Source: Christensenella sp. UBA1260
GTDB taxonomy: Bacteria; Bacillota; Clostridia; Christensenellales; CAG-917
DNA: 26,540 nucleotides
Direction: 5' to 3'
Assembly (NCBI GenBank): GCA_002308155.1
Contig: DBVQ01000012.1
Coordinates: forward strand, 3,819 to 30,358
Every line of letters starts with the position of its first letter. Position 1 is the stretch's first letter. This document shows, piece by piece, positions 8,091 to 26,540 of this stretch. Under the pieces are notes generated by a model that did not search any database, was not told the origin of the DNA, and saw only the letters and a list, made by a program, of their open reading frames with translations. A program made the position numbers and the translations under genes.

Positions 8091-8130
8091 TTGCTTTGCG
8101 TTGTGCAACCCTAAATAAAGCACCCCACAA

Positions 8131-8169
8131 GCTCGTACTGAGTGCAGACCGGGGCACTTCGGGGACTCC
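8131..8169. repeat. 39-bp direct repeat, copy 1
   Basis: GCTCGTACTGAGTGCAGACCGGGGCACTTCGGGGACTCC, 37/39 identical to 8449-8487. Confidence 0.92.
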
Positions 8170-8448
8170 CCCGACTTCGGCGTTGCCAAAGGCATCCGCC
8201 TTGTTCGCTTTGGCTACCAACAATTCACAGGATTGTTGGCTTAACGCGTCGCGCCAACGCGGAATAAGCCGAACACAAGTGCCAATGCTCCAAGGAATAA
8301 ACAGAATTGGTCGCATTGGCACGTTGCTATTCTCTGCAAGAGTGTACTACTCGCTCAGGGGACACCAAGTCGGCACCCTAAAATCCGTTTCCTCTATTCT
8401 TTGCCACTTCGCGTTCGTGGCGGCTCCGCCAACAGAATGCCACTCCTT

Positions 8449-8487
8449 GCTCGCACTGAGTGCAGACCGGGGCACTCCGGGGACTCC
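8449..8487. repeat. 39-bp direct repeat, copy 2
   Basis: GCTCGCACTGAGTGCAGACCGGGGCACTCCGGGGACTCC, followed by an overlapping 8-bp hairpin GACTCCGC-CTT-GCGGAGTC. Confidence 0.92.
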
Positions 8488-8528
8488 GCCTTGCGGAGTC
8501 GGTTCCGTCTTCGAAATAGTGAAGATTC

Positions 8529-8654
8529 AAAAACCGCGTGATTTTGATGAGATGCGCGAAAACAAAAAAAATCACCCCGCCCAATGTACTGGCGTACATG
8601 ACGGGGTGTATTTGTTGCAGTTGACAAAGCAGATCGCAAAATCACACGGTTTTT
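8529..8654. repeat. 126-bp segment bounded by an 18-bp inverted repeat
   Basis: AAAAACCGCGTGATTTTG (8529-8546) versus the reverse complement of 8637-8654, AAAAACCGTGTGATTTTG, with one mismatch. Confidence 0.85.
8559..8608 (-). terminator. Probable terminator of the minus-strand DUF1624 gene
   Basis: CACCCCG/CGGGGTG stem (8573-8579/8602-8608) with inner ATGTAC/GTACAT stem, followed on the minus strand by ATTTTTTTTGTTTT. Confidence 0.7.
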
Positions 8655-9618
8655 AGATGCCCCAAGTGCCTGTAAGGGCAAAAGTCGCAAGTTCTAATAT
8701 TCCTGCCAGAACGACAAGGTGGGCGAGGTAGAAATAGAGGGCGTATCTGCCGACAAAGGTTATCGGGGTGTGCCACTTGCCGTCGAGTTTTGGGAGCAAA
8801 GAGCGACGTTTTGGGTAGAGGAATGGAGCAAGCAATACGCCTGCAAAGAAGAAGGCAGAATATGGGATTATGCTGAACAAATCGCCAGGGGAGATTTCAT
8901 ATTGCTCATAAAACGCCAAATGATTGCCATAGATGTCTTTTGGGGCAAAGAATATTCCAAACACTCTGTGCGTGCTCGCGGGCGGAGTGTACAAGAAATA
9001 CAGGCACAAAACGACAATGATTATTGCTGCGCTAATCCCCACAATAATCCACTTTTGATACTTGGATTTTTGGGTTGCAAGAGCGATAATTGCATACAAT
9101 AGTATGCAAAATGCCAAAAAGTGCAGTACGCCAAAGGATGTGAAGACGCTCCCCGGGGCAAGGACTTCGGTGCTGTCAAATATGAGCGTCTGCACGCCGT
9201 ACGTGACGAGCGTATACAGGAGCGCAACGAGCGCGAGCAGTCCGCCGCGTTTCAAGTTTGAGCGCGAAAATGAACACGAAATCCCTGAAATTGAGAAGAA
9301 GATAAACAGCACAATCGGGTGGATTATGCGCCTTGTGAGGCTCTCAAAAAACCAGTTGAAACAGAACACGGAAAACTTGTCCCAAAGTGCGAAATCATAA
9401 TCGTACCAAGTGGGTGCAAAAAACGCCGCAATCAGCATTGTGAGGTGGTCAAGCACCATGAGACACACACAAAAACCGCGCAAAAAATCTATTTCCCAAA
9501 CGCGCGGTTTTTTGACCGGTGTTTTTGGGGCATTTTCTTGCGGTTTTTCGACATCTAACGCGGTATTTTGACTGTCGTCGACAATCTCGTTTTGCCGGGA
9601 GGTTTGTTCGTGTTCCAT
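8653..9618 (-). CDS. DUF1624 / heparan-alpha-glucosaminide N-acetyltransferase-like membrane protein (321 aa)
   Basis: RVWEIDFLRGFCVCLMVLDH N-terminal motif, FGVLHFLA, C-terminal GRYALYFYLAH and multiple TM segments. The start is set at 9618 (MEHEQ) because a promoter lies inside the longer 9747 extension. Confidence 0.88.
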   Translation of the reverse strand: MEHEQTSRQNEIVDDSQNTALDVEKPQENAPKTPVKKPRVWEIDFLRGFCVCLMVLDHLTMLIAAFFAPTWYDYDFALWDKFSVFCFNWFFESLTRRIIHPIVLFIFFSISGISCSFSRSNLKRGGLLALVALLYTLVTYGVQTLIFDSTEVLAPGSVFTSFGVLHFLAFCILLYAIIALATQKSKYQKWIIVGISAAIIIVVLCLYFLYTPPASTHRVFGIFFAPKDIYGNHLAFYEQYEISPGDLFSIIPYSAFFFAGVLLAPFLYPKRRSLLPKLDGKWHTPITFVGRYALYFYLAHLVVLAGILELATFALTGTWGI

Positions 9619-9625
9619 ATATGAA

Positions 9626-9654
9626 ATAGTAGCATCAAGTGCCCGCCGTGTCAA
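9626..9654 (-). promoter_or_regulatory. sigA promoter placing +1 at or near the ATG (leaderless)
   Basis: Minus strand TTGACA (9654-9649), 17 nt, TG-C-TACTAT (9631-9626), 7 nt, ATG (9618). No SD. Confidence 0.75.
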
Positions 9655-9848
9655 CTGCAAAATGCAGGGGAACAACGGCGCAGCAAGCGGGGCAGACAAC
9701 AAGCTTTGTTTTGAAAAATATTTTTGAAAAAGTTTTTGCTTAAACATAGTTTATGGGTGTCACATTTGGGCGCAAATCACAATAGATTGTGTATGGATAT
9801 GCGCACGCACACTACCTGTTGCGATGAGTAAGAAAAAAAAGTTTGGTA

Positions 9849-9876
9849 TTGACTTTTAGTGCACGCGTGGTATAAT
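9849..9876 (+). promoter_or_regulatory. Near-consensus sigA promoter of the giant gene
   Basis: TTGACT (9849-9854), 16 nt, TG-G-TATAAT (9871-9876), with an A8 tract at 9833-9840 as an UP-like element. SD GGAGGAG at 9928-9934. Confidence 0.85.
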
Positions 9877-9937
9877 TATTGTGTGTAATAATCTGCACAT
9901 ACGCGCATTATACGTGCGTATGAGCATGGAGGAGATT

Positions 9938-10012
9938 ATGAAAAAGCAAAAGTTACCACTTATCTTGTTGCTCGTGCTTGTGATCTTTATGATTGCAACA
10001 CTTGCTGCATGT
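9938..10012 (+). other. Lipoprotein signal peptide (signal peptidase II) with lipobox
   Basis: MKKQK + LPLILLLVLVIFMIAT + LAAC (Cys25 at 10010-10012), followed by a Ser/Gly/Pro-rich tether NPSTRRSGGNGSSIIDVPVVPTPDEPTENE. Confidence 0.9.
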
Positions 10013-13000
10013 AACCCGTCCACTCGTAGATCGGGCGGAAACGGATCGTCAATTATTGACGTACCAGTCGTTCCGACTCCGGATGAACCGACCGAAAACG
10101 AAAGGTATCTGGGATCACAGGACGCATGGAGCATATTGAAGTTGGCGGCACTCAACGCATCCGCACAAGGCAAGGACGCAAACTTCCTCAACTTCGATAC
10201 GGCGATTAATTTCGGGTTCGCCAAAGATACATACAATGCGCAATACGTGCTGCGTATCGCAGGCAGTATCTATACGGACTTCGACAAGACGCAATCGGGC
10301 AAAGATCCGAGCACAATATTGTTTGAGCTCACAAGGACTTCCAAGAACGTTTTGCCAAATGGTGAAGAGCAGCTCATTTATGACGATGAGCCTGTCATGA
10401 GTTTGTATTATCTTGACGAACAGATCATCCTTGACATTTCCGGACTTAAGAAAGGTGCGCACGTTGTCAAGACGAGCGACATCGATCTCGCGGCTCTCAT
10501 CACAAAACTTGACGGCATCGTTGACAAGATCGGCATCTCTGACTTGTTGTGGGACAAGGTGTTCACGATGAACATCGGCCAACTCATCAAGCAACTCGCC
10601 GGCATGGACATCGTCAACGTATCGCTTGAAGATTTGATTGTAAACTTCTTGTTTGGCTCAAACAAGAGTCGTTTTATTGATTATGGCGAGGGACACACAC
10701 AACTCCAAATCCCGTGCGATCTTTCATTGATTGCATCAATTTTGCCACTTGTTCAAAGCCTTATTCCAGAAGATATCTTCGACTTGGTCGACAGAGTGCT
10801 CGGTATTGACCTCCAAAAGATCGGCGCACTCAGCGGCATGGCTCTCTACCTCCAAGCAGATATCTATGACGACAAGCTCGCCGGTATTGACGCGGACATC
10901 GACGTCAACCTCAATTCCTTCGGCAAAGAAGAAATAATCAAGAAATACGGCATATTCCAAAACGAAATCGGCATCAACCTCGGCTATACGAAGTTTGACT
11001 TTGCCGGCACTTCCGACGTCAACGTCAGAGAAGTTGTAAATACAAAGTATCAAAGCGGCCTCGACAACATCAAGGACTACTCCATCCTCACTTTCGAAGG
11101 CAGGATGACAATCAATGTCAATGCAATTGACAAGACTGTCAAGATTGACAATATCATCGGCTCGTTCGGCACATTGATTTCCGGACTGCTTGAACAATAT
11201 CTTGATGCAGACTTGCTTGCAAGTCTTGCTCCGCTCTTCCAAAAGAACGTTGACTTCCACAAGGGCACGTTCACGTTTGGTTTGAGCTTGCAGGGTACAA
11301 TCAACACGCGCGACAATTCAAAGACGAATATCGCTCTTGAATTGGTGTCTGAAGACAACACAACTGCACTCGGCGTCTACTATGTGGGCGAAATGAACGC
11401 ACTCTATATTGACGCAAGCCATCTCCTCACGGGTGTTCCGGACGGAAACGGCGGCTATTCGGGTGCAAAAGTCAAAATCACGCAATGGGAAGGCAAGCCT
11501 CTCAACCTCAATGAAATTGTTGACGGCCTCTTTGATAAGGTCGGCGACATTATTGTTAATGCAATCAACAACATTGACATCTTCAAGAAAGAAGATCAAC
11601 AAACACTTCAAAATGTGAAGGCTGTTGTTGACGGCGTGCTTGAGGACAAGACTCTCCTCATCCCGCACAACGGATTTACATCCGCAGACGATGAGCAAAC
11701 TGTCGATACAATGACGCTCATCAATATGATTCTTGATTGCATCGACATCAATATGGACGGCAACATCTTCAATATTACGGAGATCAACGTCCAAATCACA
11801 CAAGCTGTTTTGAGTGCAATCCTTGGTCTCGTCCTCAAGGGAGATAACGCAGGAATCAAGATTCCTGTCACAAACATTGATTTGCACTATGCAAACCAAG
11901 GTGTCGGCAAGATCAAGACCCTTGGCCTCAATATCGGTCTCGGCGTTGACGTGGCAGCTCCTCCTGTATCCTTGGATCTCTCGGGCAGACTCCAACTCGG
12001 TCAACTCACGGATTCAGACAGCTTCATGGGCAAGATCAACGACGTCATTGCCAGCGACAATCAATACATCTCGATTCTCGAAGACGGCACGCTTGACATA
12101 AGCAAATTCAACATTTCGTTGTCAACCGGTCTCGCGATTGATTTGTCCACAATCCAAGGCAACCTTGGCGAAATCAACATTGCACTTGACAAACTCGGAT
12201 TGGCGGACGATTTGCTCTCGGGTATGTCGGCGCAGATTTTGATGGCGCTCGGCACGATTCAAGGCGGACTCAACATCAACCTCGATGCAAGCATCGACTT
12301 GTCAATGGGTCTCTCACTTGATACGCTCCTCAATTCGCAAATCAAACTCACAATCACGAAATCGCCGAAGTATTATGACAAGACCAGCGTTCCTGTGCCT
12401 GCGGGATACGCAGACACATATTACAGCCTCAGCAGCACCGGACAATACGTCGAAGACGTAAACGGCAAGTATTGGAAGGAAGAGAAGCAATTGCTCAGCG
12501 TATGCTTGGCAGACGGCTACATCTATCTTGACTTGTCCGTGTTGTTCGTTGGTGTTGAAAAAGTCAAAGTCAAAGTTGAAGATATCATGAGTCTCTTCGC
12601 CAAAGACGAAGAGCCTGCTGCATCTGCGGCAGAAGCTCTTGCCAGCGATGAAGAGGGCGGACTCCTTGGCGACATCTCCGTTGACGATATCATCGGACTC
12701 ATCGGACTTGTTATCGGCGACATCAAGGTGACGGACGGATTTATTGAAATCGCAATCGCATCCGGCATCATTGACAACATCATGGATATGCTCGGCATCA
12801 AGGGCATTGACATCAAGTTCTATGAGGAAGACGAGGGCGCAACAGATACAACAGGCGGTATTCGTCTTGCAGTGCCTGACACGCTCAACCTTGATGACTT
12901 GCAAGTTGAAGTTTGGCTCGCAGTCGGCAAGAACCTTGACCTCACAGTCGCACTCAACGGCTTCAAGGCAGGTATTGTTGAAAGAGATCTCTCTCCTGCG

Positions 13001-16000
13001 GACAAAGACCAATACACAAATATTTTTGAAGCACCTTATGCTTCAATCGATTTAAGACTCGGATTTGACTTCTATGGCGACGAAGGCGAAACAGACTTCG
13101 AACTCGGCACAAATGCTGAGGACATAGTTGTTGTTCCGTTCACTTTCAACGATCCGATGTCCTTTGAATACAAGCTCAGAGTGGCGGGCGATCTTGACCT
13201 CACACCAATCATCGACTACTTGTTTGGCGCACCTTCAATCAACACGAAGGACAATTCAAGCGAACTCCTCATTGAAATCACGGGCTCCAAGTTCGGTCGT
13301 CAAGAGGAAGTCTTGCTTGGTTTGTACTATACGGGCGGCACGCTATATATCGATGGCGCCAACTTTGGTATCACCAGAGTTTCAACGGATATTGACCTCT
13401 ATGAACTCATCCTCAACCTCATCATGAGCGACGTCAACGTCAAGATCAACGACGTCGGCGGCTCTACTGTTGCGGACGCACTTGTGAGCGGCGATGACGA
13501 AGAGAGCAGCGGCGCAAGAGAGAAGATAGCCTTTGCGGTTATGGCACTCCTTGCTTCCGATCGTATTAAGGTTGAAGTGACAAAGGGTATCACCGAGGCA
13601 ATCTTCCAAGTCTTCGGCGTTGATACAAACAACGCAGTCGCATATCTCAGCTATGTTTGGGACAACTATCAAGAGCAAGAATACAACAGCGCTCAACAAC
13701 AATTCCCGCACGGCGACGAGATGTTCTCCTTTACAGGTGCAATTTACAACGAAAACAACCAATACATCGGTGCGGCGACAATCTATGCAAGCCACGAGAC
13801 GTCAATCAAGGTCAAGAACCAACTCAACGGCCTCACGATTGCGCACCCAGTGTATGACCCAACCACACATCAGCCAATAGACAAGGTTTACACGCTTGCG
13901 GAATACGTGCACGCGAGCAACATCCACGGCGGATTTGACGAAGTCACGCTCTTCAACGACAGCAAAGACATCGTGTTGCCAAGCGTTTTCTTGGAACTCA
14001 AGGGTACAATCTCTCTTGATGCTTCAGCGGGCAACGAAGAGTGGACAATCGGTGAGTGGATTGAAAACTTCTTGTGCGATACAGACTTTGTCAAACTTGA
14101 TGAAGACACCGGATTGTACTCCGAAGTTTACAAATATGCAGGCAACGGCAATTACAAAGTGCTCTCCGCACAAGAAAGAGACGGCTACACCGGCGACAAG
14201 TATGTCAAGGTGTATGCAGAGGGCGGCACTATCGCATTCAACAAAGTTGACGACAGAGACAGTTTGACAAGCAATTCAAACATCTTCGTCAAGGTGGGCG
14301 ATACATATAGACGCGCAGTTCTCTCCGAAGTCCCACAAAATGAAACAATCTATGAACAAGATGCATTGACCTCGTTCATTGCTGATTTGTTGCTCCAATA
14401 CAACATCCCATCCGATATTGCAAGAGAGTTTGGTTTCCGTATCGCAGTCAAGTTGAGACTCAATCCGGAAGTTCCAATCAACCTTACGGCAAATATCATC
14501 TATGCAGAACTTGGCGATGACAATCCTGCATATACAGAAGTCTATAAACTCGTCAAGAACGAATACAAGTTGTTGGAAGGCGAGGAGAGAACAAGCTATC
14601 AAGGCAAGAAGTATGTCAAACAATACTTGCCGGACGGCATCCCGCTCAAAGCAATCGGCAGCAGAACAGAGCTTGAAGGCGTTGACAAAGTCTATGTCAA
14701 GGTTGGCGACAACTTTATCAAAGTTGACCCAAGCAAAGTTGAAAACGATACGCTCTACATTGCCAAGTCCTTGCTTGACCTCAACTATATCTTGTCTCAT
14801 ACAGACCTCGCAATTGAACTCTACAACAAGAACATCACAACAGTTGACAGCATGACATCGCTTGCTGAAAAGAACAAGGCTACAATCCTTGCTGTGCGTC
14901 TTGTTGCAGAACAAGATTCCGACGGCAACTACACAGGCACAAGTTCCATCTATCTTGACTTCAAAGATGACTTCCACATGGCAATAAGCAACCTCAATCT
15001 TGCAAGCTTGCTTGATACAGTGCTTGGACTCTTCAACAAAGACGATAGTTCCAGCGGCGAGGCTCAAACCTCGGGCGAAGCACAAACATCAGGCTTGCTC
15101 GACGGCATTGATATGAGCAATCCGTCAAGCATCATTGACACGTTGAAGGGCGTCATCGGCGGTGTTATCGGCACAATCAATGCTGACCAAGAAGGCTTCA
15201 AGATCAACCTTGCACAAGGTCTTGTGCTCATGCTTGTCAACATGATCACGGGCAAGAAGATCACCGCAGACAAGTTCTTGCAACTCAATCCTGACACGAG
15301 CTTCTTGGAGTTCTATTGGGAATATGCGCTCAAGTTCAGCATCGGTATTGATCCACTTGCATTTGCAATCAGCTTGTCTCAACTCAGAATTGAGTTGGGT
15401 GGCAGCGCAAGCGTATTGCCAAGCGACTTCAACAAAGCAAATTATATGTCCGTCGATCAACTCGACGAAATCTCGCTCCAGATGGCTCTTGACCTCAACT
15501 TGAAGCTCAAGGGACAACAGGAGCAAATCAGACTTGAAAAATATCTCGACGTGCTCATTGCAGACCTCGGGCTCAAACTTGGCATCGACTTCCCAACAGT
15601 GGATATGGATGCAAGATACAGCCTGACGCTTGGCGCAAACCTCGCACTTGACGATCCGAACAGTACACAAATTGTCCTCGAACTCTTGGATATGGCAGAG
15701 GATCCTGACGACGGCGAAATCGTCATGGGTGTCTATATCGACGGTCCGGAACTCTTTGTTGATATGGGCAAGTTCTCCAAGCAAGCAATCCACGTTGCAA
15801 ATACTGACATCGCTGACCGTCTCTGCGCGTTCATAAGTGAACTCATGGGCAAGATCGGCGAAGATGTCCCAGCAATCACAACTTCGGATGCATTTACTGC
15901 GGCAGACGACGTTTCTGCTGACCAAGCTATGGCTATCATGCTGAGCCTCGCCAACGGCAAACTCGGCTTGCTCGTCACAGAAAATGTTATCATTGGTCTC

Positions 16001-19000
16001 ATCGCGGCACTTGCCGGCAACACAGCGGTCACAAACGGCAAATCCATCACGGAAATCATCAAGGAGTTTGACCTTGATCTCGCACTCAATGTTGACGTTG
16101 CTGTTTCTCCGGAAATCGCACTTGACTTGAGCTTGGACAGCAACCTCATCGCACTTGAGATTTCACTCCACGACCTTGGCATTGCAACAGGCAAAGACAA
16201 CGATACGGCAGAGGGTATTTCTCTCAAGCTTGAAAGTGCTGTTGCAAGAAAGGACCTTGTTCTTATTGAACCAGGCGATGTCATCCCAGATGCAGAAAAA
16301 TATGACGAACAAGGCAATCAAAGCAATAGCGGTGCGTACAAGAAAGTTGACCACTTCAAGCAACAAGCAGATGCTCACATAATCTCCATTGACCTCGCAA
16401 TCGTGGTCGATTACAGAGCGTGCGCAACATATGTTCGTCTTGATGACGAAACACTTGCAAACTATCCGCTTGATGAGAGATATGAAAAGAACGCAAAAGA
16501 CGGCAAATTCGTCAAAGACCCAAGAGGTCATTATGTAAGAGACGGCTTCACATACGACCAGCTTCTCGATGCAATCTTTGGTTTGCCGGCGCTTGCAAGC
16601 ATCATGTCTTATGCGCTTCCTGTCGTGCGTTTTGGCGGCGAGAGCTTTGTCTCAGCCAACACAGACGGCTCGCTCACAGTTGGTGCTTTGCTTGAGCACC
16701 TCGGCCTCAGCGTGCTCCTCGATTCTGCAATCGCTGACAGCTTCCTCGTTGAAATCGGTCTCAAAGTTGACCTTGAAAAACTTGGCTTGTTTGATGAAAC
16801 AACAGGCGATTTGAAGCCAATTGACACAATTGTCATAACAGGTGCAAACCTCATCCGCGCACTTGAAGCAAAGATTGCAATAGACTTTGACTTTGAGCAC
16901 AATCGCGGTGCAACAAAGGTTGGTATCTATCTTGCAGACGGCGAGCTCTTCCTTGACCTCTCCGGCATTGGCAGTGAAAAGATCAGAATCAGTGTTGATC
17001 CGCTTCTTGATTTGCTCACAGAAGTCATGCCAAACAACTTTGACATCAGAGAGTTCAGCTTCAAAGTTGGCGATGTGGTTGATTTGGTCAAGAACATGAT
17101 CGGCGGCGACGATGCAGGCACAGATGCAGTTGTATCGGCAGACGATGACGAAGGCGGCGTGCTTGACGGACTTGACCTCAACGGTATCATGTCAATCATC
17201 AATGCGGCAATCACAAGAATCAGCCTTGAAGCTGCAGAGTATGTCAAGAATCCGGGGCTTTACAGAGTCAAGGATTTGGGCGTTTTCCTCAGCGCAAACA
17301 TCATCAATGATTTGCTTTCAATCTTGACAGGCGAAGAGATTTACTTTGAACAAAGTGTTCTTGACGAATCTCAAAGCGGCATCTTCTTGACATTTGGCGA
17401 CGACTCCTTCAGAGACTTGTATGACAGCGATATGTGGTCATTGAGGCTCTTGTTTGCCTTGGCAAACAAAGAAGACGTCAATGCAGAAGAAGTTGACGAA
17501 GACAAGACATACAAAGTTGACATCAAGTTTGGTCTCAACCTTGAAATCAACGTTGAAAGCAGTGAAACAGTAGTAAGCCTTGTTCCGCAAAACGACAGAC
17601 TCAACTTCATCAGCCTTGACGAATATGTTGAGAACTTGCTCAATGTATTCAACAAGGTGCTTGATTGCACTTATGACGAAGTTGCATCTCCTGCTGCGGG
17701 CAAGTTGTACTATACGTTTGCAAGCGATGCAAACGGCGACTATGTCTATCAAAACGGCACCTATCGTGAGCTTTTGAACACGAAGGATGACGAAGGCAAT
17801 ATCACGGGCAAAGAAGACGCAGGCGACAAGGCTCGCTTTGCACGCAGCTATGCAATGGTTGTCGGCGGCAAGAAGAGAGCAGTGTCCTTTGTCAAAGACC
17901 CGGACGGCGAATATACGTTTGATGAAAACAAGGGCACGTTTGTCCCTGTGTACGCAGGCGTAGGCGCGAACAATATATATAGTGTTCAAGTTGGCGACGA
18001 ACTTGCAAACGACGTCAAACTTTATGCAAGAAACGACATTGAAGAGTATGTTGATCAAAACATCTCATTCAGCGTTTCCGGTCTTGTGTACTTCAATTCC
18101 AACGGAGTTGGATACTCCAACCTCGGCGGACTTTTTGAAAGCTTGCTCGGCGATATGCTCATTGAACTCCAAACACTCAGTGCATTCCACAACGGCATTG
18201 GCTTCAAGCTTTCCGCAAACCTTGACCTCGGCGCAATCAACTTTGCAGGTCTCATGGACAGCAGTGGCGATCACGGCTCAATCCTCGACAGCGACTTTGA
18301 CAAGATTGAACTTGCACTTGAACTCATTGAAACAAACACAGAAAACGACTTTGTCAAGATTCCAAAGAAACAAGGCAGCAGTACTGTCTATGTTGACAAG
18401 GTGCTTGGTGGTATTTATCTGCACAACGGTTCACTCTATCTTGACGCAACCGGTATTGTTGACGTTGCTGAAAACTACTCCAAGATTGACAACTTTATGG
18501 ATATCTTGAACGCAATCATCGACAAGGGCGGCGCGTTTATTGACAAGATCAAGACTGTGTTCAGCAGTGAAGAGAACTCAGATGCTGTGACATCCGCAGA
18601 CGGCGGCAACAACCAAGTCATCCGCGATGCAATCCTTGCACTCGTCTATGGCGACAAGGCATTCCAAATCCAACTCACACGTTCAATCCTCTCACTCCTC
18701 ATCTCTTCAATCTTGCCTGATCTCGGTTCAATTGAAGACGTGTTTGATATGTTTGAAATCTCCTTGAATGTACAACACGGCGAGGAAATCTACTCCAAGG
18801 TTGCAGATATTGAAGCGGGTGTTCCTGCTGAAGAAAAGACAAAGTATTATGAGATAGAGATTGGCGGCAATTTGTATTATGTCACCAACAGCTATCAACT
18901 CTACTATAAAGACGGCGAAGATCAATATCACGAAGCTGCTCCAGGATACGTTGGCACAACTTATGTCTTGTATTATGACGACTATCGTGAAGTCCTCCAT

Positions 19001-22000
19001 GTCTATGATTCTGTTGAAGTCTTTGACACAGAGCTCTTCAAGAAAGACAGATACACATATTTCGAGGATGAGAACTACGAGACTATTGACAACGTCAACG
19101 GCAAGTATGCTGCTGTCGAAATCAATGGTTGGACTTATCTCCCGATCAGCATCTACAACCTCTACCACAAGGATGGCGAGGGCAAGCTCGTCAAGAACGA
19201 AGGCAACAAGTTCTTGACAGCTGGTGCAAACTACATCATCTACAACGGTGCAGAGAAGGCTGTTGACAGCTTGCGCACACGTAGATTCGGCTATGTCAAG
19301 TCTGATCTTGATCATGAATACACGCTTGACAAGAACGGCATGTACAAGAAGGTTGCAGATGAATATATCCTCATGGATTATGTCGAAGCAGAAACCTATG
19401 ACGGCGATCGCTATGTCAAGGAAGGCGAGTACTATCGTTCAGTGAGATATTACAACAGACTTGACGAGTTCTTTGTTGGTCTCAACATCGCAGTCGGCAG
19501 CGTTGATATGGGCTTTGAAGTCGGCGGATTGGAGTTCGGCTTTGGCGCAGGACAAACATTGCTTCCGGATTACATCAAGGACGGCAAAGAGCACACATAC
19601 AAGCTTTTGGGACAAGAATATGTCTATGACTCATTGGATGCGGATGCTGTTGCCAATACAAAAGACCTCAGCACCAACCCGTTCTATGATACAGTCATAA
19701 GAGTTGCATTCTCTGTTGAACTTGACTTTTCTATCACAGAAAGCACATTTGACTTCGGCAAGATTTTGCACAACATCTTGGGCGACATTGATGGTATTGT
19801 GTTTGAAGCTCCAAGCACGGCAAAGCACTATTCATCCGCACACTTCCGTCTTGATTTCAGCCTCATGCTCGACATGTACGACGTCACGAACTCCGAGCTC
19901 ACGGCAGAACTCTTTGCGGTCACAGAAACAGGCTATCAATCCAAGTGGCTTGGCATTTACTATCTCAACAATGCACTCTATATTGACGCAGAAGATTTCC
20001 TCAACATCCCGAAGATCTCAATCAGTGGTCTCAACATAGTTGACCTTCTCGGCGATATTTTGGGCATGGATGGCAACGATATCTTCATCCATTGGGACGA
20101 CTTTGCAGAGTCGAGCTCTGATGCAATGACTTCTGACGATGCAGAAGTTGACTTCTCCAACAAGGACCTTGCTGCGGCATTCCTTATCAGCAGAAATCAC
20201 CTTGCAATTGCTATCGGCGACAAGATGTTTGACTATATCATCAATCTTATCTCCGAGCTCACAGATATTGATCTGTCCAAGTTCATCTACACAGCAATTG
20301 ATGGCAACTTGCTCGTCACACTTGATACAAACGACGGCATCAACCTCGAAGCACAAGCTGGCTTGCAGATTGCAGGTGACAGATTCAATGTTGTCGGCAA
20401 GGCTTCATCTGTCAAGAACAATGTCATCACAAACTTGAAGGCGAACACAAAGGAATACTATGTGTTCAGACCGGCTGATGACGCAAGAGCAACAGCACTT
20501 GGTCAAGATGCATATTACATCTCTGCAAACAGCGGACAATACTTCCGTGCAATCACACCAACTGACAAAGAAACGACAAAATATGTCAAGTACATGGTCA
20601 GCTATTTGACAAATGGTTTGGATGAGACAGTTTTGATTGGCAGATTGGTGCTCGACGGCGGCATTTTGGACGATGCTGATGAGTACATTGCCATTGACAG
20701 TGAAGAAAGCGTCTATGAGCTTGTCTCCGGCGATTCAACAAACCAAGCACTCGTCAAAGACGGAGGCAAGTATGACATCGACCTCAAGTTGTTGCTTGCA
20801 ATCCGCGACCTTGACGTACAATTTATCAATTCAAGAAACTACTCCTTGACGGAGGAAGACTTTGACCAATATATGAGTCTCAACGACCTCGACCGTATCA
20901 GCCTCACTGAGAAGATCGAGATTTCGCCAAGCCTCAAAGTCAGTGTTGATGGCGAAAACGACATTGACCTTGCAGAGCTTATTGAATACTTCTTGCCAGG
21001 CATCAGCAGCACGGATGTCATCACTCTCATTTCAGCAAAATCTGACAGCGGCACAGACGTTGACAGACAATTCTGGCTTGAGCTTACAGTTGATATCCAA
21101 CTTGCCGCACTCATGAATGCAGTGCGTACAAGCATGAGCAAGGGCACAGAAGGCGACTTGCCAATCATTGAGTATGTCAACATGCTCATCGACAAGATCA
21201 AAGGCGTGTTCGATGGCGGATTGTCAGTTGATGCAATCATTGATATCGTGCAAGATGTCGCAAGTTATATTGGTATTTCCGCAAAGATCACAACCCTCAA
21301 CGGCGAAGAGAAAGCACATGGCGAAGATCCGCATACAGTTGCAGGTCTCTATCTCCTCGGCGGCAAGTATGAACTCATGACTGCAAACGAGTACTACGAA
21401 GCAGACAACGACTATGTCGCACCGGATGAGAGATACAGCCACTACTATGAGAACAGCAAGGGCAGCTACTATTACAAGGAAGGTTATGCTGAATTGTCTG
21501 GCGCAGAACTTGTGTCCTATGAAGGCCCAAGATACAGCTTTGTCAACAACGAGTACGTTGCAGATCCAGACGGCACATTCAAGAACGTTGGCGAATATGT
21601 CTATGACACGACAAAGACAGGCGTGACAAGATATTCGTATGACTCATCTTACTGCTATGAAAACCCACTTGGCGAATATTCTCGTATCAATGGTGGTATT
21701 TATATCGACCTCAGCTACTTCAACATTCCAAGTCTCTATATCAACAGTAGAACGATGAGAAAGCTGCTTGGCAACTTGCCATCAATCCTTGGCTCGTTTG
21801 GTATCAACCTTGGCGGCGATGCAGAGTCCAGTGGCGAAGCAATGATCTCTGATGATACACAAGAGAACGAGGAGAGCGGCGAAGGCGGCGGAATTCAACT
21901 TCCACTCATTGACGATACAGTCAGCGGCTATCTCAAGACCTTCCTCTATGGCATCAGAATGACATCATCCTATATTGCTGTCATGCTTGATCCAAACTAT

Positions 22001-25000
22001 ATCAACAGCATCTTGAAGCTTATCGGCGGTGAAGACTTCACACTTCAATTTGGTTATGACTTCACAAACAAGCCTGAACTCAAGATCTATTCTGACAACC
22101 ACAGATACAACTATATGTCAATGACCGACGTGCTTGCTTCGAGCAACACAGCAGAACTTGTCAACAAGACAAGATACAGATTTGTTGTTGAAGAAGTTGA
22201 CGGCAAAGAAAACGGCATGTACTGGAAAGACGAAGACGGCGCGTTCTTCTTGAAGACAGATATGACTGTTTCTCAACGCAAGAACTACGATGCTGCTGTT
22301 GATGCAGGCACAGAGCACTACTACGACATCAGTGTTGTTGACGTCTACATCAGAGTTGACGCCAAGTATGTGCTTTACAAGAACGCAACAACGTCTCAAA
22401 TCAGACGTTCTGACAAAGACCCAGTTCTTGATGCTCAAGGCATTGTGTTCCCACAACTCTTTGTTGAAAATACAGATCATGATCTTGTCCCAGTCTCATC
22501 TTATGGCAATGACAAGATTTACTGCGTCAACGTCCTTGACAAGCGCAACCCACTCATTGGTTTGCAACTCTATTTGTGGAACTATGAAGTTGCACTCAAC
22601 ATCTATATGCCTGAGTTTGATGCTCGTGAGTTTGTCTATGTCACGGCAGAAGAAGCAGAAGCAAAGCATGTTGATGCTCCTGATGGTGCAAAATATACAA
22701 CTCAAGTCCAAGAACTCATGACCGCTGTGGACAGAGAACTCGACGGACTTGATCAATGGTATGCAGATTATTATGACAGCGGCGACTTCAACGGCGCATT
22801 TGTCCCTGCTTTGTATAATGCATCACCACGTTATTATGAATATAAGAATCAATATTATGTAATCGACGTTGACACGCTCTGCGTAAAGAACGGTGACAAC
22901 TATGATCCTGTTGGCACAATGGTCGATTATATGGCACAAATCGCAGACGAAGTGAGCCCTGCAACTTACTATGTGAAAGTTGGCACTGCCTACGTCAAAC
23001 TTCAAAGATCATTTGTCTACAGAAAGACTGTGTACGATCTCGACGGCAAACGCTTGCTTGAAGCAAACGAACTTGATGACAACTTTGCAGAAGCAACAGC
23101 AGGTTCATACAAGCTTGTCGGCAATGAATATGTCGCACTCAGCGCAGCAGAGCTCGGCACATACGTTGGACCAAGATTCAGAAATGAGGGTGTCGGCATC
23201 TACATTGAAGATCATGCAGGCACATACGGCATAAACGAAGACGGCGAATACTTTGCTCTCACAAGTGACCAAAAGGGCGAGTTTACAGGCACAAGATACA
23301 CCAAGTACTTCGTACGCGACGTGCAACCAAGCCTTGTCAGACAACCTGACATCACTTATGTTGACACGGATGACATCTTCTATGTCTCATTGAAGCTCTC
23401 CGGCAGAATTGCGTTTGAAGGCGGAAGAATCTACTCCTCATACAGCGATTATAGATCACTCTACAATGCAATCCCAGCCCATGCGGCTCTCGATGAAGCA
23501 AGCGCAGACATGAGCAATGCTGACTGGGAAGTCATCAAGTACATCTCATTCAAGTACTTCCATGGCGACTATGTACAAGTGACCGACCGCGATGAAGTTG
23601 AAGCCCTCAGAAAGAGCGGTGCGCTCTACATTTGGGCAAACAACTCCGCATATTCCGACAAGTACAGCGGTGTCAACGAACCGTTGAACGAAGTTTTGAG
23701 AGGCATCCTCGGCGACATGCAAGGTTACTTCCAAGTCACTGAGAATACAAAGATGGAAATCTTCTTTGAAATCAAACTCAACATGAGCTTTGAAATCAAC
23801 TTCATGCCTGCATTCAACATCATCGTCAGAGACCTTGACTTTGCGTTTGATGCATTTGGCAGACAAGAAGACTTGAAGACCAACCCAATCGATGTTGACT
23901 ATGACGAATCTCAATATGAGTACTTGACAGAAGAGGAGAGAGCAAACCACACAGACAAACGCTACTATGGTTCACTCACTCACGTGCTCGGCATCTACTA
24001 CAGCAACGACCACGACACAGGCAATGCAGGCCTCTATATTGACCTCAGCTGGTTGCTTGGCAACGGCGGCAAGATGTACATCGATTTGAGCGAGTACTCA
24101 GTTGAAGATGTCATTGGTGGACTCGTTGGCGACTTGCTTGCCGGCACATCCTCCGATGCACTCACTTCGGACGAAACAAAACCGACGGATAAATTAAGCA
24201 TCAACTTGTCAACAAGAAAACCGTCAATTTATATCAACATATTCACAAACGCACTTGCACTCAAGTTGACTTCAAGCTTCTTGAGCGTCATCATTGCAGA
24301 GCTTGCTCCGGATTCCGGCAACATCCTTGAGATGCTTCCGAACTTCCAAATCTACTTGAAGCAAACTCTCAATCCATATGACTTGACTCTCGGCATCTTG
24401 CTCTACAACGAAGCGGGCGACGTGCCGATCCTCGACGTCAAGATGCAAGTGTACGGACTCAACGGCGACGAATTGTCATCAAGCGTCAAGTTCGGCAGAG
24501 AAGAAGACTTCCGTAGAGACGAAGCAGCACATTCTGACGATCCAAACTACAACATCTTCTACTATGCAAACTTCTACAACGATCAAGAGAACGGTCAGTA
24601 TGCAAAGAACAAGACGTCAAAGGGCTACGTCAAAGTTGACGACACATATATTGCAAATACGTTTGAACAAAGCAGCCTTGGCAGATACAAATACGAGGGC
24701 GGAAGATACTTGCCAATGACGGAAGAAGAAGCCGGTACTTTCAAGGGCGAGAGATACACGTCCGGTGGTACTCCTGCGGCAGATGGTGCCTACAAGAAGG
24801 TCAATGAGAGCTATGAGGCCCTCACTGCAACTGAAAGAGGTACATACACAGGCGTCAGATACTTGACACACACACCGTATGAGAGATTCTCATTGCCAGG
24901 CGGCAAGTTTGTTGAAGTCACAAGCAAGGCAAGATATGCATTTGGCTCAACTCACGTGAACACATACGACAACATCCTCTATGGCGATGAAGCTGGTCTT

Positions 25001-26540
25001 GAACCGCTCTTTGACGGCAAGAAATTCAGACAAGTCTATGGCACGAGAGAGTACAACGAGTACACAGGTCCAATCTATGTCCGCAACAACAGCGAGAACA
25101 CTGTTGAGTACTTCACAAAACTTGACCTCCTCGGCTTCACAGGCGTCAACGATTTGCAATACAGAATTGCACAAAACAGCACAGAGGAATCCGATCCAAG
25201 CACAGTCTTGTTGGACGGCATCTACTACTATCCGGTTGACCCGAATGGCGATGGTCGTACGGATATGTTTGAAGCTGACGAAATCGATCCAAGCGTCAAG
25301 GTTTACAAGTATGTGAGCAACTTCACGGCTTATGAGAAGATCGGTTCTATGAACTTGAACGAACTCATCAGCAGCATAAGCGGCGGTAGCTTTGAAATCT
25401 TGTCCTTGCTCAAAGCGTTTGAGAAAGACTTCAAGACACTTGAACTCAGCCTCAACCTTGATCTTGGCCTTAGACTCAAAGACATCATCAACTGGTCAAA
25501 TATCATGACCGACTTCATTGATGATCCAAATATCGCAAGCACAGTTAAGTTCCTTGTCACATCACTTGGCGATGGATTCAACGGACATGCTGACAACGAA
25601 TCATTTGAGAGTACGATTGGTCTTGACATTGTGCTCCATGTCTATCTCAACGTCAGCAACTTGATTGCGGCAATCACAAGCCCATACGGATTTGACATCG
25701 TGTCTGCACTCAAAGGTCTCATCCTCTATGCAGAGATCACATACGACACAAACTTCCATGGCGACGACGTTGCAACCGCAAGATTGTGGGTTGAAGTCAC
25801 GGAAGATGAGTATGACGGCAGTGGCAACCTTGTCAAAGAAGGCGGCAAGCTCAACGGCTATATCGACATGAAAGAGTTTGGCGATATCGTCGGTCTTGGC
25901 GACTACTTCTCCTATGGTCTCGTTGAAGACGTTGACATCAACAACTTGCTCGGCAAGGCATCCGGACTCCTCGGCGGCTTGACATCTGCTTCAACTGATG
26001 CATATGTCTCTGCTGACGATGACGAAAACAAGTCAACAGGCGTTCTTCCGGAAAATATCTGGAACATCGTCAACGCAATCATCGGCAGACTTCTCATCGC
26101 AGACGACTTCGTGACAATCGGTCTTGATGAAAACCTCATGAACGGCGTCATCAAGCTCATCCTCGGCGAAGGCAACGAAGACCTTGTCGAAATTATCGAG
26201 AAGTTGCCGCACTTGAGAACAACAAACGACAGAAATACATCCGGTATCACAATCAACTTCTACGGCACGGCGCCAACCATTGATTTGAACTTCGGTTGGG
26301 TCGTCGGCAAGAAGTATGCACTTGCACGCACAGAGTACAACAACAAGTACGGTTCAGAGTCAGAATACCATGGCTCCGACATCGTGGCAAATCAAGCAGG
26401 CATTGCATTTGACTCAGAAGGCAAGGTCGTGGTGTCCACAGAAGGGTATGCTCTCATTGACTTCGCATATCCGGATTGGGAAGGCGACACCTACAAGTGG
26501 GTAGGCGGCACGTTTGACTATGAGGACAGAAACGCAGACA
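9938..26540 (+). CDS. Giant multi-repeat lipoprotein (>5,534 aa, partial, runs off window end)
   Basis: ATG 9938 follows GGAGGAG. I read the frame by eye to the window end (...GTFDYEDRNAD) without a stop. The start and end codon phases agree, and the ORF track lists no ORF in this frame after 9938, as expected for a stop-less ORF. Codon usage is coherent and strongly biased (CTC/CTT, GGC, GAC, AAC, ATC, GCA). Confidence 0.95.
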   Translation, partial: MKKQKLPLILLLVLVIFMIATLAACNPSTRRSGGNGSSIIDVPVVPTPDEPTENERYLGSQDAWSILKLAALNASAQGKDANFLNFDTAINFGFAKDTYNAQYVLRIAGSIYTDFDKTQSGKDPSTILFELTRTSKNVLPNGEEQLIYDDEPVMSLYYLDEQIILDISGLKKGAHVVKTSDIDLAALITKLDGIVDKIGISDLLWDKVFTMNIGQLIKQLAGMDIVNVSLEDLIVNFLFGSNKSRFIDYGEGHTQLQIPCDLSLIASILPLVQSLIPEDIFDLVDRVLGIDLQKIGALSGMALYLQADIYDDKLAGIDADIDVNLNSFGKEEIIKKYGIFQNEIGINLGYTKFDFAGTSDVNVREVVNTKYQSGLDNIKDYSILTFEGRMTINVNAIDKTVKIDNIIGSFGTLISGLLEQYLDADLLASLAPLFQKNVDFHKGTFTFGLSLQGTINTRDNSKTNIALELVSEDNTTALGVYYVGEMNALYIDASHLLTGVPDGNGGYSGAKVKITQWEGKPLNLNEIVDGLFDKVGDIIVNAINNIDIFKKEDQQTLQNVKAVVDGVLEDKTLLIPHNGFTSADDEQTVDTMTLINMILDCIDINMDGNIFNITEINVQITQAVLSAILGLVLKGDNAGIKIPVTNIDLHYANQGVGKIKTLGLNIGLGVDVAAPPVSLDLSGRLQLGQLTDSDSFMGKINDVIASDNQYISILEDGTLDISKFNISLSTGLAIDLSTIQGNLGEINIALDKLGLADDLLSGMSAQILMALGTIQGGLNINLDASIDLSMGLSLDTLLNSQIKLTITKSPKYYDKTSVPVPAGYADTYYSLSSTGQYVEDVNGKYWKEEKQLLSVCLADGYIYLDLSVLFVGVEKVKVKVEDIMSLFAKDEEPAASAAEALASDEEGGLLGDISVDDIIGLIGLVIGDIKVTDGFIEIAIASGIIDNIMDMLGIKGIDIKFYEEDEGATDTTGGIRLAVPDTLNLDDLQVEVWLAVGKNLDLTVALNGFKAGIVERDLSPADKDQYTNIFEAPYASIDLRLGFDFYGDEGETDFELGTNAEDIVVVPFTFNDPMSFEYKLRVAGDLDLTPIIDYLFGAPSINTKDNSSELLIEITGSKFGRQEEVLLGLYYTGGTLYIDGANFGITRVSTDIDLYELILNLIMSDVNVKINDVGGSTVADALVSGDDEESSGAREKIAFAVMALLASDRIKVEVTKGITEAIFQVFGVDTNNAVAYLSYVWDNYQEQEYNSAQQQFPHGDEMFSFTGAIYNENNQYIGAATIYASHETSIKVKNQLNGLTIAHPVYDPTTHQPIDKVYTLAEYVHASNIHGGFDEVTLFNDSKDIVLPSVFLELKGTISLDASAGNEEWTIGEWIENFLCDTDFVKLDEDTGLYSEVYKYAGNGNYKVLSAQERDGYTGDKYVKVYAEGGTIAFNKVDDRDSLTSNSNIFVKVGDTYRRAVLSEVPQNETIYEQDALTSFIADLLLQYNIPSDIAREFGFRIAVKLRLNPEVPINLTANIIYAELGDDNPAYTEVYKLVKNEYKLLEGEERTSYQGKKYVKQYLPDGIPLKAIGSRTELEGVDKVYVKVGDNFIKVDPSKVENDTLYIAKSLLDLNYILSHTDLAIELYNKNITTVDSMTSLAEKNKATILAVRLVAEQDSDGNYTGTSSIYLDFKDDFHMAISNLNLASLLDTVLGLFNKDDSSSGEAQTSGEAQTSGLLDGIDMSNPSSIIDTLKGVIGGVIGTINADQEGFKINLAQGLVLMLVNMITGKKITADKFLQLNPDTSFLEFYWEYALKFSIGIDPLAFAISLSQLRIELGGSASVLPSDFNKANYMSVDQLDEISLQMALDLNLKLKGQQEQIRLEKYLDVLIADLGLKLGIDFPTVDMDARYSLTLGANLALDDPNSTQIVLELLDMAEDPDDGEIVMGVYIDGPELFVDMGKFSKQAIHVANTDIADRLCAFISELMGKIGEDVPAITTSDAFTAADDVSADQAMAIMLSLANGKLGLLVTENVIIGLIAALAGNTAVTNGKSITEIIKEFDLDLALNVDVAVSPEIALDLSLDSNLIALEISLHDLGIATGKDNDTAEGISLKLESAVARKDLVLIEPGDVIPDAEKYDEQGNQSNSGAYKKVDHFKQQADAHIISIDLAIVVDYRACATYVRLDDETLANYPLDERYEKNAKDGKFVKDPRGHYVRDGFTYDQLLDAIFGLPALASIMSYALPVVRFGGESFVSANTDGSLTVGALLEHLGLSVLLDSAIADSFLVEIGLKVDLEKLGLFDETTGDLKPIDTIVITGANLIRALEAKIAIDFDFEHNRGATKVGIYLADGELFLDLSGIGSEKIRISVDPLLDLLTEVMPNNFDIREFSFKVGDVVDLVKNMIGGDDAGTDAVVSADDDEGGVLDGLDLNGIMSIINAAITRISLEAAEYVKNPGLYRVKDLGVFLSANIINDLLSILTGEEIYFEQSVLDESQSGIFLTFGDDSFRDLYDSDMWSLRLLFALANKEDVNAEEVDEDKTYKVDIKFGLNLEINVESSETVVSLVPQNDRLNFISLDEYVENLLNVFNKVLDCTYDEVASPAAGKLYYTFASDANGDYVYQNGTYRELLNTKDDEGNITGKEDAGDKARFARSYAMVVGGKKRAVSFVKDPDGEYTFDENKGTFVPVYAGVGANNIYSVQVGDELANDVKLYARNDIEEYVDQNISFSVSGLVYFNSNGVGYSNLGGLFESLLGDMLIELQTLSAFHNGIGFKLSANLDLGAINFAGLMDSSGDHGSILDSDFDKIELALELIETNTENDFVKIPKKQGSSTVYVDKVLGGIYLHNGSLYLDATGIVDVAENYSKIDNFMDILNAIIDKGGAFIDKIKTVFSSEENSDAVTSADGGNNQVIRDAILALVYGDKAFQIQLTRSILSLLISSILPDLGSIEDVFDMFEISLNVQHGEEIYSKVADIEAGVPAEEKTKYYEIEIGGNLYYVTNSYQLYYKDGEDQYHEAAPGYVGTTYVLYYDDYREVLHVYDSVEVFDTELFKKDRYTYFEDENYETIDNVNGKYAAVEINGWTYLPISIYNLYHKDGEGKLVKNEGNKFLTAGANYIIYNGAEKAVDSLRTRRFGYVKSDLDHEYTLDKNGMYKKVADEYILMDYVEAETYDGDRYVKEGEYYRSVRYYNRLDEFFVGLNIAVGSVDMGFEVGGLEFGFGAGQTLLPDYIKDGKEHTYKLLGQEYVYDSLDADAVANTKDLSTNPFYDTVIRVAFSVELDFSITESTFDFGKILHNILGDIDGIVFEAPSTAKHYSSAHFRLDFSLMLDMYDVTNSELTAELFAVTETGYQSKWLGIYYLNNALYIDAEDFLNIPKISISGLNIVDLLGDILGMDGNDIFIHWDDFAESSSDAMTSDDAEVDFSNKDLAAAFLISRNHLAIAIGDKMFDYIINLISELTDIDLSKFIYTAIDGNLLVTLDTNDGINLEAQAGLQIAGDRFNVVGKASSVKNNVITNLKANTKEYYVFRPADDARATALGQDAYYISANSGQYFRAITPTDKETTKYVKYMVSYLTNGLDETVLIGRLVLDGGILDDADEYIAIDSEESVYELVSGDSTNQALVKDGGKYDIDLKLLLAIRDLDVQFINSRNYSLTEEDFDQYMSLNDLDRISLTEKIEISPSLKVSVDGENDIDLAELIEYFLPGISSTDVITLISAKSDSGTDVDRQFWLELTVDIQLAALMNAVRTSMSKGTEGDLPIIEYVNMLIDKIKGVFDGGLSVDAIIDIVQDVASYIGISAKITTLNGEEKAHGEDPHTVAGLYLLGGKYELMTANEYYEADNDYVAPDERYSHYYENSKGSYYYKEGYAELSGAELVSYEGPRYSFVNNEYVADPDGTFKNVGEYVYDTTKTGVTRYSYDSSYCYENPLGEYSRINGGIYIDLSYFNIPSLYINSRTMRKLLGNLPSILGSFGINLGGDAESSGEAMISDDTQENEESGEGGGIQLPLIDDTVSGYLKTFLYGIRMTSSYIAVMLDPNYINSILKLIGGEDFTLQFGYDFTNKPELKIYSDNHRYNYMSMTDVLASSNTAELVNKTRYRFVVEEVDGKENGMYWKDEDGAFFLKTDMTVSQRKNYDAAVDAGTEHYYDISVVDVYIRVDAKYVLYKNATTSQIRRSDKDPVLDAQGIVFPQLFVENTDHDLVPVSSYGNDKIYCVNVLDKRNPLIGLQLYLWNYEVALNIYMPEFDAREFVYVTAEEAEAKHVDAPDGAKYTTQVQELMTAVDRELDGLDQWYADYYDSGDFNGAFVPALYNASPRYYEYKNQYYVIDVDTLCVKNGDNYDPVGTMVDYMAQIADEVSPATYYVKVGTAYVKLQRSFVYRKTVYDLDGKRLLEANELDDNFAEATAGSYKLVGNEYVALSAAELGTYVGPRFRNEGVGIYIEDHAGTYGINEDGEYFALTSDQKGEFTGTRYTKYFVRDVQPSLVRQPDITYVDTDDIFYVSLKLSGRIAFEGGRIYSSYSDYRSLYNAIPAHAALDEASADMSNADWEVIKYISFKYFHGDYVQVTDRDEVEALRKSGALYIWANNSAYSDKYSGVNEPLNEVLRGILGDMQGYFQVTENTKMEIFFEIKLNMSFEINFMPAFNIIVRDLDFAFDAFGRQEDLKTNPIDVDYDESQYEYLTEEERANHTDKRYYGSLTHVLGIYYSNDHDTGNAGLYIDLSWLLGNGGKMYIDLSEYSVEDVIGGLVGDLLAGTSSDALTSDETKPTDKLSINLSTRKPSIYINIFTNALALKLTSSFLSVIIAELAPDSGNILEMLPNFQIYLKQTLNPYDLTLGILLYNEAGDVPILDVKMQVYGLNGDELSSSVKFGREEDFRRDEAAHSDDPNYNIFYYANFYNDQENGQYAKNKTSKGYVKVDDTYIANTFEQSSLGRYKYEGGRYLPMTEEEAGTFKGERYTSGGTPAADGAYKKVNESYEALTATERGTYTGVRYLTHTPYERFSLPGGKFVEVTSKARYAFGSTHVNTYDNILYGDEAGLEPLFDGKKFRQVYGTREYNEYTGPIYVRNNSENTVEYFTKLDLLGFTGVNDLQYRIAQNSTEESDPSTVLLDGIYYYPVDPNGDGRTDMFEADEIDPSVKVYKYVSNFTAYEKIGSMNLNELISSISGGSFEILSLLKAFEKDFKTLELSLNLDLGLRLKDIINWSNIMTDFIDDPNIASTVKFLVTSLGDGFNGHADNESFESTIGLDIVLHVYLNVSNLIAAITSPYGFDIVSALKGLILYAEITYDTNFHGDDVATARLWVEVTEDEYDGSGNLVKEGGKLNGYIDMKEFGDIVGLGDYFSYGLVEDVDINNLLGKASGLLGGLTSASTDAYVSADDDENKSTGVLPENIWNIVNAIIGRLLIADDFVTIGLDENLMNGVIKLILGEGNEDLVEIIEKLPHLRTTNDRNTSGITINFYGTAPTIDLNFGWVVGKKYALARTEYNNKYGSESEYHGSDIVANQAGIAFDSEGKVVVSTEGYALIDFAYPDWEGDTYKWVGGTFDYEDRNAD

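Follow-up and report, generated by a model that had tools for sequence, protein, structure and literature searches.

A single gene of ~27 kb in Christensenella sp. UBA1260 encodes a predicted lipoprotein of ~9,052 residues with 14 modules of a poorly described class

The surface proteins Ebh and Embp of Staphylococcus, which are highly acidic, repetitive and ~1.1 MDa in mass, are thought to form long rods that span the wall of these monoderm cells. Ebh ends in a C-terminal membrane segment and is built of helical FIVAR, GA and DUF1542 repeats, whereas the giant protein described here carries an N-terminal lipid anchor and alpha/beta modules, and no part of it matched FIVAR, GA or DUF1542 in Pfam at E <= 1. 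The LPXTG adhesins with Ig-like repeats (Rib/alpha-like, SasG/Aap and Big-domain proteins) likewise expose arrays of Ig-like beta-sandwiches that evolve rapidly, but they are linked by sortase at the C-terminus; the giant lipoprotein would have the opposite polarity, its Ig-like part being the free distal end. The same logic of a long repeat extender, acidic inter-domain sites and a distal binding region is seen in SiiE and in RTX adhesins of the LapA/MpIBP type. These, however, belong to diderms, are exported by type I secretion and combine BIg with RTX domains, whereas the protein studied here would depend on Sec and Lsp in a monoderm and gave no RTX or BIg matches (for RTX, no HemolysinCabind match in Pfam at E <= 1); that it binds cations is conjecture.

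The 1.5-Mb genomes of Apilactobacillus (Lactobacillus) kunkeei, gut-associated Bacillota, reportedly encode giant extracellular proteins of several thousand amino acids, said to be of unknown function. These are reported to form a cluster of several genes, as against the single gene in Christensenella sp. UBA1260, and they were absent among the 27 matches of our exhaustive HMMER search. The LolA and LppX-LprG fold resembles the modules described below in having a curved antiparallel sheet packed on helices, and LppX shares the lipoprotein context, but these carriers are single domains of ~200 aa without significant structural or profile similarity to the modules. A literature search returned no paper describing the family to which the giant protein belongs. 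Judged by its sequence, the protein would be set apart from Ebh/Embp, the LPXTG adhesins and the RTX adhesins by its N-terminal lipid anchor, its reversed polarity, and a stalk module and neck without known relatives.

The stretch of DNA analysed (the window; 26,540 nucleotides, C50:3819-30358) is flanked on contig C50 by runs of N and belongs to a bin of 1.23 Mb in 100 contigs that is 68% complete. Its plus strand is open from position 9881 to the window end, and the ATG at 9938 opens a run of 5,534 codons with zero stops (9938-26540), as an earlier note made from the window alone had described; the frame running off the window end is the sole reason why the ORF track had missed the gene. This frame is only the first 60% of a 27-kb gene that continues to C50:40842, so that the note was right to call the protein giant, at more than 5,500 aa, but the true length is ~9,052 aa rather than ~5,500. 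Following the frame along the contig past the window, in line with the note's proposal, led to a stop codon at C50:40840-40842.

Beyond a run of 140 N the same frame goes on to an apparent stop three codons past a run of 45 N. A second frame of 701 aa follows the latter run and a third, of 2,109 aa, follows a run of 80 N; these two frames are colinear with residues 5656-6266 and 6421-7910 (the C-terminus) of one homologue of 7,923 aa. Public bovine-gut contigs, with runs X3, X4 and X18 as independent samples, bridge the gaps of 140, 45 and 80 N with 173, 58 and 106 letters, and the differences of +33, +13 and +26 are the exact shifts that join codon phases 1, 0 and 1. Since these independent contigs restore one frame, the three N runs are mis-sized, under-estimated scaffold gaps. 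They occupy C50:30359-30498, 32748-32792 and 34676-34755. With the 72 bases hidden in them, C50:13756-40842 amounts to 27,159 nt or 9,053 codons, i.e. one gene of ~27.2 kb encoding ~9,052 aa and ~1 MDa (983 kDa, with a pI of 4.4, from the known residues alone).

An uninterrupted ORF of 9,521 aa in the congeneric genome G005 aligned with the window part in one BLASTP segment (65% identity, residues 1-5476) and with the concatenated protein from end to end, both junctions being crossed by a single segment. Near-identical DNA was found in 19 bovine, sheep and other gut runs, and run X1, probably the source sample, showed only 3 differing positions. Neither an in-frame stop nor a chimeric join was found. 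A stop inside the three gaps is unlikely, because the orthologues are open there.

Upstream of the gene, on the plus strand, lie a sigma-70-type promoter (TTGACT-16 nt-TG-n-TATAAT, 9849-9876) with 11 of 12 matches and a TG before the -10 box (extended -10), and a Shine-Dalgarno sequence GGAGGAG (9928-9934) placed 3 nt before the ATG. Boxes of the TTGAC type at -35 and of the TATAAT/TAAAAT type at -10 occur upstream of most orthologues listed, and a GGAGG/GGAGA-type Shine-Dalgarno sequence is kept in most, with weaker variants in a few. With an effective number of codons of 40.0, where the median of 449 long ORFs of the genome is 48.1, the gene falls in the 5th-6th percentile. The near-consensus promoter, strong ribosome-binding site and strongly biased codons of the earlier note are thus all present. 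Its further claim that the gene is expressed agrees with these features and with three bovine RNA-seq metatranscriptomes containing 20%, 11% and 6% of the sampled 31-mers of the gene; such k-mer presence in assembled RNA runs suggests that the gene is transcribed in vivo, DNA carry-over being another possible source.

In the 5' leader (window 9877-9937; orthologous leaders L028, L031 and L034-L043) a box GTATAWTAATCTRYG is kept right after the -10. Between this conserved AATCTRYG box and the Shine-Dalgarno sequence lies a hairpin with a 9-bp core stem (9894-9926, plus strand; -16.8 kcal/mol, z -2.4). A GC-rich hairpin of 6-9 bp and varying sequence sits just upstream of the Shine-Dalgarno sequence in most of the 12 orthologue leaders folded, with stems such as CAUACGCGC/GUGCGUAUG and ACAUAUGC/GCAUAUGU, the proteins being only 27-65% identical. 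The leader had no Rfam match, and RNAalifold on a MAFFT alignment of the leaders gave no consensus structure. The hairpin may stabilise the 27-kb mRNA or may be a regulatory site or operator.

The protein begins with a lipoprotein signal peptide (residues 1-24 plus the lipobox Cys25, 9938-10012, plus strand; Cys codon at 10010-10012). Its N-terminus MKKQKLPLILLLVLVIFMIATLAAC comprises a basic n-region, a hydrophobic core of 16 residues and the lipobox L-A-A-C, in the layout MKKQK-LPLILLLVLVIFMIAT-LAAC, which fits the pattern [LVI][ASTVI][GAS]-C; the earlier note had already recognised this lipobox, and one is found in every homologue whose N-terminus was recovered. The same genome (G000) encodes both Lgt (PF01790, 181 bits) and LspA (PF01252, 115 bits), as do four of four congeners, and the protein qualifies by sequence as a predicted lipoprotein substrate of Lgt and LspA. 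Apart from the signal peptide, its ~9,000 aa contain no hydrophobic segment. No C-terminal anchor was seen: the C-terminus ...KPVAQATISKSSFNAQG (...SSFNAQG) has no LPXTG motif, hydrophobic stretch or charged tail. Omp85/BamA was found in none of five genus genomes, of which four have a completeness of 97% or more, the controls being positive in all seven diderms, which argues for a monoderm host; penicillin-binding proteins are present, and the cells are predicted to be monoderm and walled. Lipobox, processing enzymes, absence of Omp85 from the five genus genomes and the single hydrophobic segment all agree with the surface location that the note had proposed.

Behind the lipid anchor the protein consists of 14 alpha/beta modules joined by acidic loops, a neck of 620 aa and an Ig-like tail. 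Iterated HMM searches with jackhmmer gave exactly 14 core copies, and ten other full-length homologues of the family also contain 14 each, down to 27% identity; a distant homologue, P0017, has 15. Twelve cores lie in the window on the plus strand, at 10217-10537 (core 1, aa 94-200), 11243-11845 (core 2, aa 436-636), 12272-12838 (core 3, aa 779-967), 13238-13645 (core 4, aa 1101-1236), 14771-15277 (core 5, aa 1612-1780), 15554-16054 (core 6, aa 1873-2039), 16856-17392 (core 7, aa 2307-2485), 18290-18775 (core 8, aa 2785-2946), 19769-20323 (core 9, aa 3278-3462, the jackhmmer seed), 21647-22048 (core 10, aa 3904-4037), 23705-24352 (core 11, aa 4590-4805) and 25658-26203 (core 12, aa 5241-5422), cores 5 to 7 being supported by an AF2 model as well as by jackhmmer; cores 13 and 14 lie beyond it.

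The modules, measured by core spacing, are 260-690 aa long and share a core of ~150-185 aa (consensus ...selalEl....lG.Yy..g.LYiDlsg.LG..k.k....l..ll, acidic loop eA.t(s).D, i.v.l...ll..ll). Each core ends in a hairpin G-x-Y-Y-x-x-G-x-L-Y-I-D-L-S, followed by a disordered acidic loop with the motif [DE]-A-x-[TV]-S-x-D-[DE]. The extra length of the longer modules consists of inserts rich in Tyr hairpins, in which a 17-aa motif Y-x2-[LMVI]-x3-[EQD]-x3-[YF]-x-G-x-[RK]-[YF] (8 observed vs 0.005 expected) and [DN]-G-x-aromatic (24 observed vs 4.6 expected) recur. When the protein was cut into chunks and compared with itself by BLAST, module copies were only 15-35% identical to one another, so the array is ancient rather than a recent expansion; neither the module nor the tail repeat has a copy elsewhere in the same genome. 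The net charge of the array is -495. In an AF2 model of a two-module stretch (38 sequences; pLDDT 67, pTM 0.55, medium confidence), each module has a helix, a hairpin and another helix, and then long antiparallel strands that form a sheet and lead into the conserved hairpin and a last helix; the acidic loops are modelled as disordered.

The neck (C50:32793-34675) and the Ig-like tail (C50:34756-40839) both lie beyond the window. Across 36 orthologues the neck has 12 invariant and 30 nearly invariant positions, and its profile reaches E 1e-175; AF2 predicts, with medium confidence (pLDDT 71, pTM 0.68), beta-rich parts around a helical bundle. The tail of ~2,000 aa is made of beta-rich repeats of ~100 aa, 6 of them found by jackhmmer and 13 by hmmsearch. 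The tail itself had no Pfam Ig match at E <= 1, and its Ig-like character is drawn from Big_4 in the tails of homologues (P0017 30 bits, P0007 21.5 and P0031 15.4, against a cut-off of 22.1) and from look-alikes in the ESM Atlas (Big_3 and Big_4, both at 0.85, SSURE and Rib). The earlier note had recognised no Ig-like, LRR, SLH, RHS, collagen or NRPS/PKS repeats; this holds for the window part by Pfam and NCBIfam, but probably not for the whole protein, given the Ig-like repeats of the tail.

Identity to G005 is 77-94% in the flanking genes, 60-83% in the module array and 40-60% in the tail, so the distal part evolves fastest, as expected of an exposed binding end. The strain represented by run X4 has other sequence in place of three segments of module 14 and the neck, with lengths changing from 177 to 297, from 815 to 782 and from 157 to 250 letters (L033 4073-4251, 5423-6239 and 6280-6438, i.e. 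C50:32073-32251, 33423-34239 and 34280-34438). These are hypervariable patches at strain level, the rest of the gene being ~95% identical. The X4 contig covers most of an 8.5-kb stretch in successive pieces, and some stretches correspond to the replaced segments.

All parts of the protein were searched against Pfam and NCBIfam at E <= 1 without a curated match; the sole Pfam match, WAC_Acf1, lay below the curated cut-off and is spurious. NRPS/PKS, RHS/YD, LRR and collagen domains had no Pfam or NCBIfam match, and SLH, CWB2 and CW_binding_1 none in Pfam at E <= 1. Profile searches of the PDB with the module alignment and the neck alignment returned 0 matches, Foldseek returned nothing at E <= 1e-3 (both AF2 models against the PDB, and the neck against BFVD), and the ESM Atlas held no feature match for the neck. 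One weak ESM Atlas lead, DUF6583, was rejected, as the module profile and a DUF6583 protein, compared by hhalign, gave a probability of 0.1%. For around 7,000 of the ~9,000 residues there is thus no match to a described domain or a solved fold. No full-length match to a characterised adhesin or S-layer family was found, and the homologues are all annotated 'hypothetical protein', which bears out the earlier description of a poorly described class.

Homology searches in protein and metagenome collections, also suggested in the note, revealed a family that is narrow but well conserved, and no one-off. An HMMER search of 1.84 billion representatives with a two-module query yielded only 27 matches (62-7,924 aa), all of them unnamed proteins, which by their length look like family members or fragments, and profile searches for stand-alone single-module or neck proteins gave only fragments on contigs of 1-2 kb. 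The 'hypothetical proteins' K2J16_00875, K2G31_00515 and DEF02_03285 from NCBI MAGs, together with P0007-P0016 (7.3-8.0 kaa), are true homologues, colinear over their full length; lipobox, neck domain and Ig-like tail are all shared, as are the 14 module cores. They are 27-65% identical to the protein described here, differ in the lengths of their inserts and are slightly shorter than its ~9,052 aa. Named homologous loci come from gut MAGs, among them 'uncultured Christensenella sp.' (mouse), Clostridia bacterium (rabbit and other hosts) and Candidatus Limadaptatus stercoripullorum (chicken).

Within the genus, whose genomes range from 0.8 to 1.8 Mb, the gene was found in 21 of the 24 species searched, mostly as open frames of 8,000-9,583 aa and shorter in a few fragmented assemblies; intact single ORFs in the genus and family span 7,263-9,583 aa. 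It takes up 1.5-2% of genomes of ~1.5-1.8 Mb. Profile searches of 301 genomes of the order (G000 included) found it in 13. In family f1, to which G000 belongs, 11 of 13 genomes and five of seven genera carry it; outside this family, one of 287 genomes of the order was positive (family f11, one of 14 genomes, one genus), with none in the 273 genomes of 40 other families. By these searches, the gene appears to be a marker of one family of small-genome gut and rumen Clostridia.

A divergent membrane acyltransferase (HGSNAT_cat / Acyl_transf_3; 8653-9747, minus strand) precedes the giant gene. It adjoins it in all five genomes of the genus that were checked (G005, G009, G024, G146 and G280), lies ~4.3 kb upstream in two genomes of genus g18, and did not appear in the flanks, which were short, of three other genera. 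On its downstream side the giant gene is directly followed by genes for an SPFH/Band_7_1 protein, which bears three zinc ribbons at its C-terminal end, and for a membrane protein with a zinc ribbon (L001 10556-12775, i.e. C50:40914-43133); the pair, whose synteny was checked in G005 and G009, occupies the same place in both (90% and 58-69% identity, respectively). A 12-bp hairpin separates the stop codon of the giant gene from this pair. Neither the acyltransferase nor the SPFH/zinc-ribbon neighbours point to a known pathway.

Several other features of the locus and genome were observed. Upstream of the acyltransferase, a hairpin-rich intergenic element (window 8032-8682, C50:11850-12500) proved to be a dispersed repeat without an Rfam match, with more than 25 partial copies (73-97% identity) that are spread over at least 20 contigs and frequently lie at their ends; one inverted copy of 329 bp (87% identity, C50:43519-43841) lies just downstream of the giant-gene block. 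The ORF of 649 aa at window 5488-7437 matched no Pfam family at E <= 0.001, Glyco_hydro_127 included, and is 83% identical in G005. A second very large open frame, of 3,656 aa, runs to the contig end on the minus strand of C75 (26-10993) in G000 and lacks both the module and the tail repeat found in the giant gene.

The most likely role of the protein is that of a long surface fibril or adhesin, as suggested by its architecture and evolutionary rate only. We consider it, on balance, probable that this one gene encodes an acidic lipoprotein of ~9,052 aa which serves as a lipid-anchored surface fibril or adhesin, with a polarity opposite to that of the LPXTG adhesins. After export, Cys25 would be diacylglycerol-modified and the N-terminus would stay in the outer leaflet of the cytoplasmic membrane. 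The anionic module array would form a wall-crossing stalk whose length is fixed and which, by conjecture, may be stiffened by divalent cations at its acidic junction loops. It would hold the neck and the fastest-evolving Ig-like tail at least 100 nm from the cell, where the tail would bind an external ligand, e.g. a plant or host glycan or another cell.

Three other explanations were weighed against this one. The three N runs inside the gene, with frames that differ across two of them, could be read as signs of an assembly artefact, a chimera or a decaying pseudogene, the long frame being a scaffolding accident. We give this hardly any credence, as the gap sizes taken from independent contigs give back a single frame, a contig from another animal (X4; 31.3 kb, 40x depth) has coordinates that extend past both gene ends, intact orthologous ORFs with conserved synteny occur in more than 30 species, and the N-free window alone holds 5,534 stop-free codons. 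The protein might instead be the polyprotein precursor of a cell coat, its acidic loops forming 13-14 processing sites and the freed modules an S-layer-like or matrix coat. Throughout the family, most module junctions do carry the motif [DE]-A-x-[TV]-S-x-D-[DE] in a loop predicted to be disordered, and the signals of high expression would suit an abundant coat protein, but the gene has no conserved protease partner next to it, the protein has no SLH or other wall-binding domain to hold released pieces, and modules that are 15-35% identical do not resemble lattice subunits. That the orthologues keep the number and order of their modules suits a single ruler-like molecule, and we regard a polyprotein as unlikely.

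A function in lipid traffic was also considered, in which 14 half-open, LolA/LppX-like modules would be chained into a conduit or scavenger for lipids or other hydrophobic cargo; it would link the membrane of a fatty-acid auxotroph to its environment or to a partner cell and ferry fatty acids or lipids between them. FabF/B (PF00109) and FabH (PF08545) were not found in five genomes of the genus (G000, G002, G005, G006 and G024), whereas DegV/FakB is present, which implies that the genus must import fatty acids. The loss of fatty-acid synthesis was nevertheless rejected as an argument for lipid transport: the search for FabF came back empty in 171 of the 301 genomes of the order (57%), so that fatty-acid auxotrophy looks widespread in this order of gut Clostridia, and with the giant gene in only 13 of them the co-occurrence is unspecific. 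On the structural side, the modules are amphipathic alpha/beta units in the AF2 model, lipid binders are over-represented in the weak Foldseek lists (LolA-like 4mxt, START, CD1, LptD, LmcA and LBP), and the ESM Atlas leads were DUF6583, DUF6612 and DUF4925; yet the best Foldseek probability was 0.09-0.23 and 4mxt reached only E 0.26, TM 0.21 and an rmsd of 15 A (with a two-module model of pLDDT 67, hence of limited power), and the hhalign result for DUF6583 speaks against that lead. The protein is, moreover, extremely acidic and hydrophilic, and an Ig-like tail and fast evolution suit binding more than transport. A conduit or scavenger is therefore quite improbable in our view, and we would rate as very improbable the more specific proposal that the 14 modules are a new extracellular relay for lipids or hydrophobic cargo in a monoderm, i.e. 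a membrane-tethered conduit or 'fishing line' of ~100 nm with which a bacterium without fatty-acid synthesis would catch fatty acids or lipids, or reach a partner cell that supplies them. If true, such a relay would be a Gram-positive functional counterpart of the bridge-like lipid-transfer proteins.

Scaffold gaps, as this case shows, can make a megadalton gene look like several 'ORFs', and a solved module and neck would add new folds. In a genome of ~1.5-1.8 Mb from which fatty-acid synthesis has been lost, 1.5-2% of the DNA still goes to this one gene, whose 14-module architecture is kept throughout a family of gut and rumen Clostridia and which bears signs of strong expression. In a widespread rumen and gut lineage, a large, conserved and probably abundant component of the cell surface is thus unannotated, and its ligand or role would help to explain the attachment and life of these uncultured Clostridia with reduced genomes.
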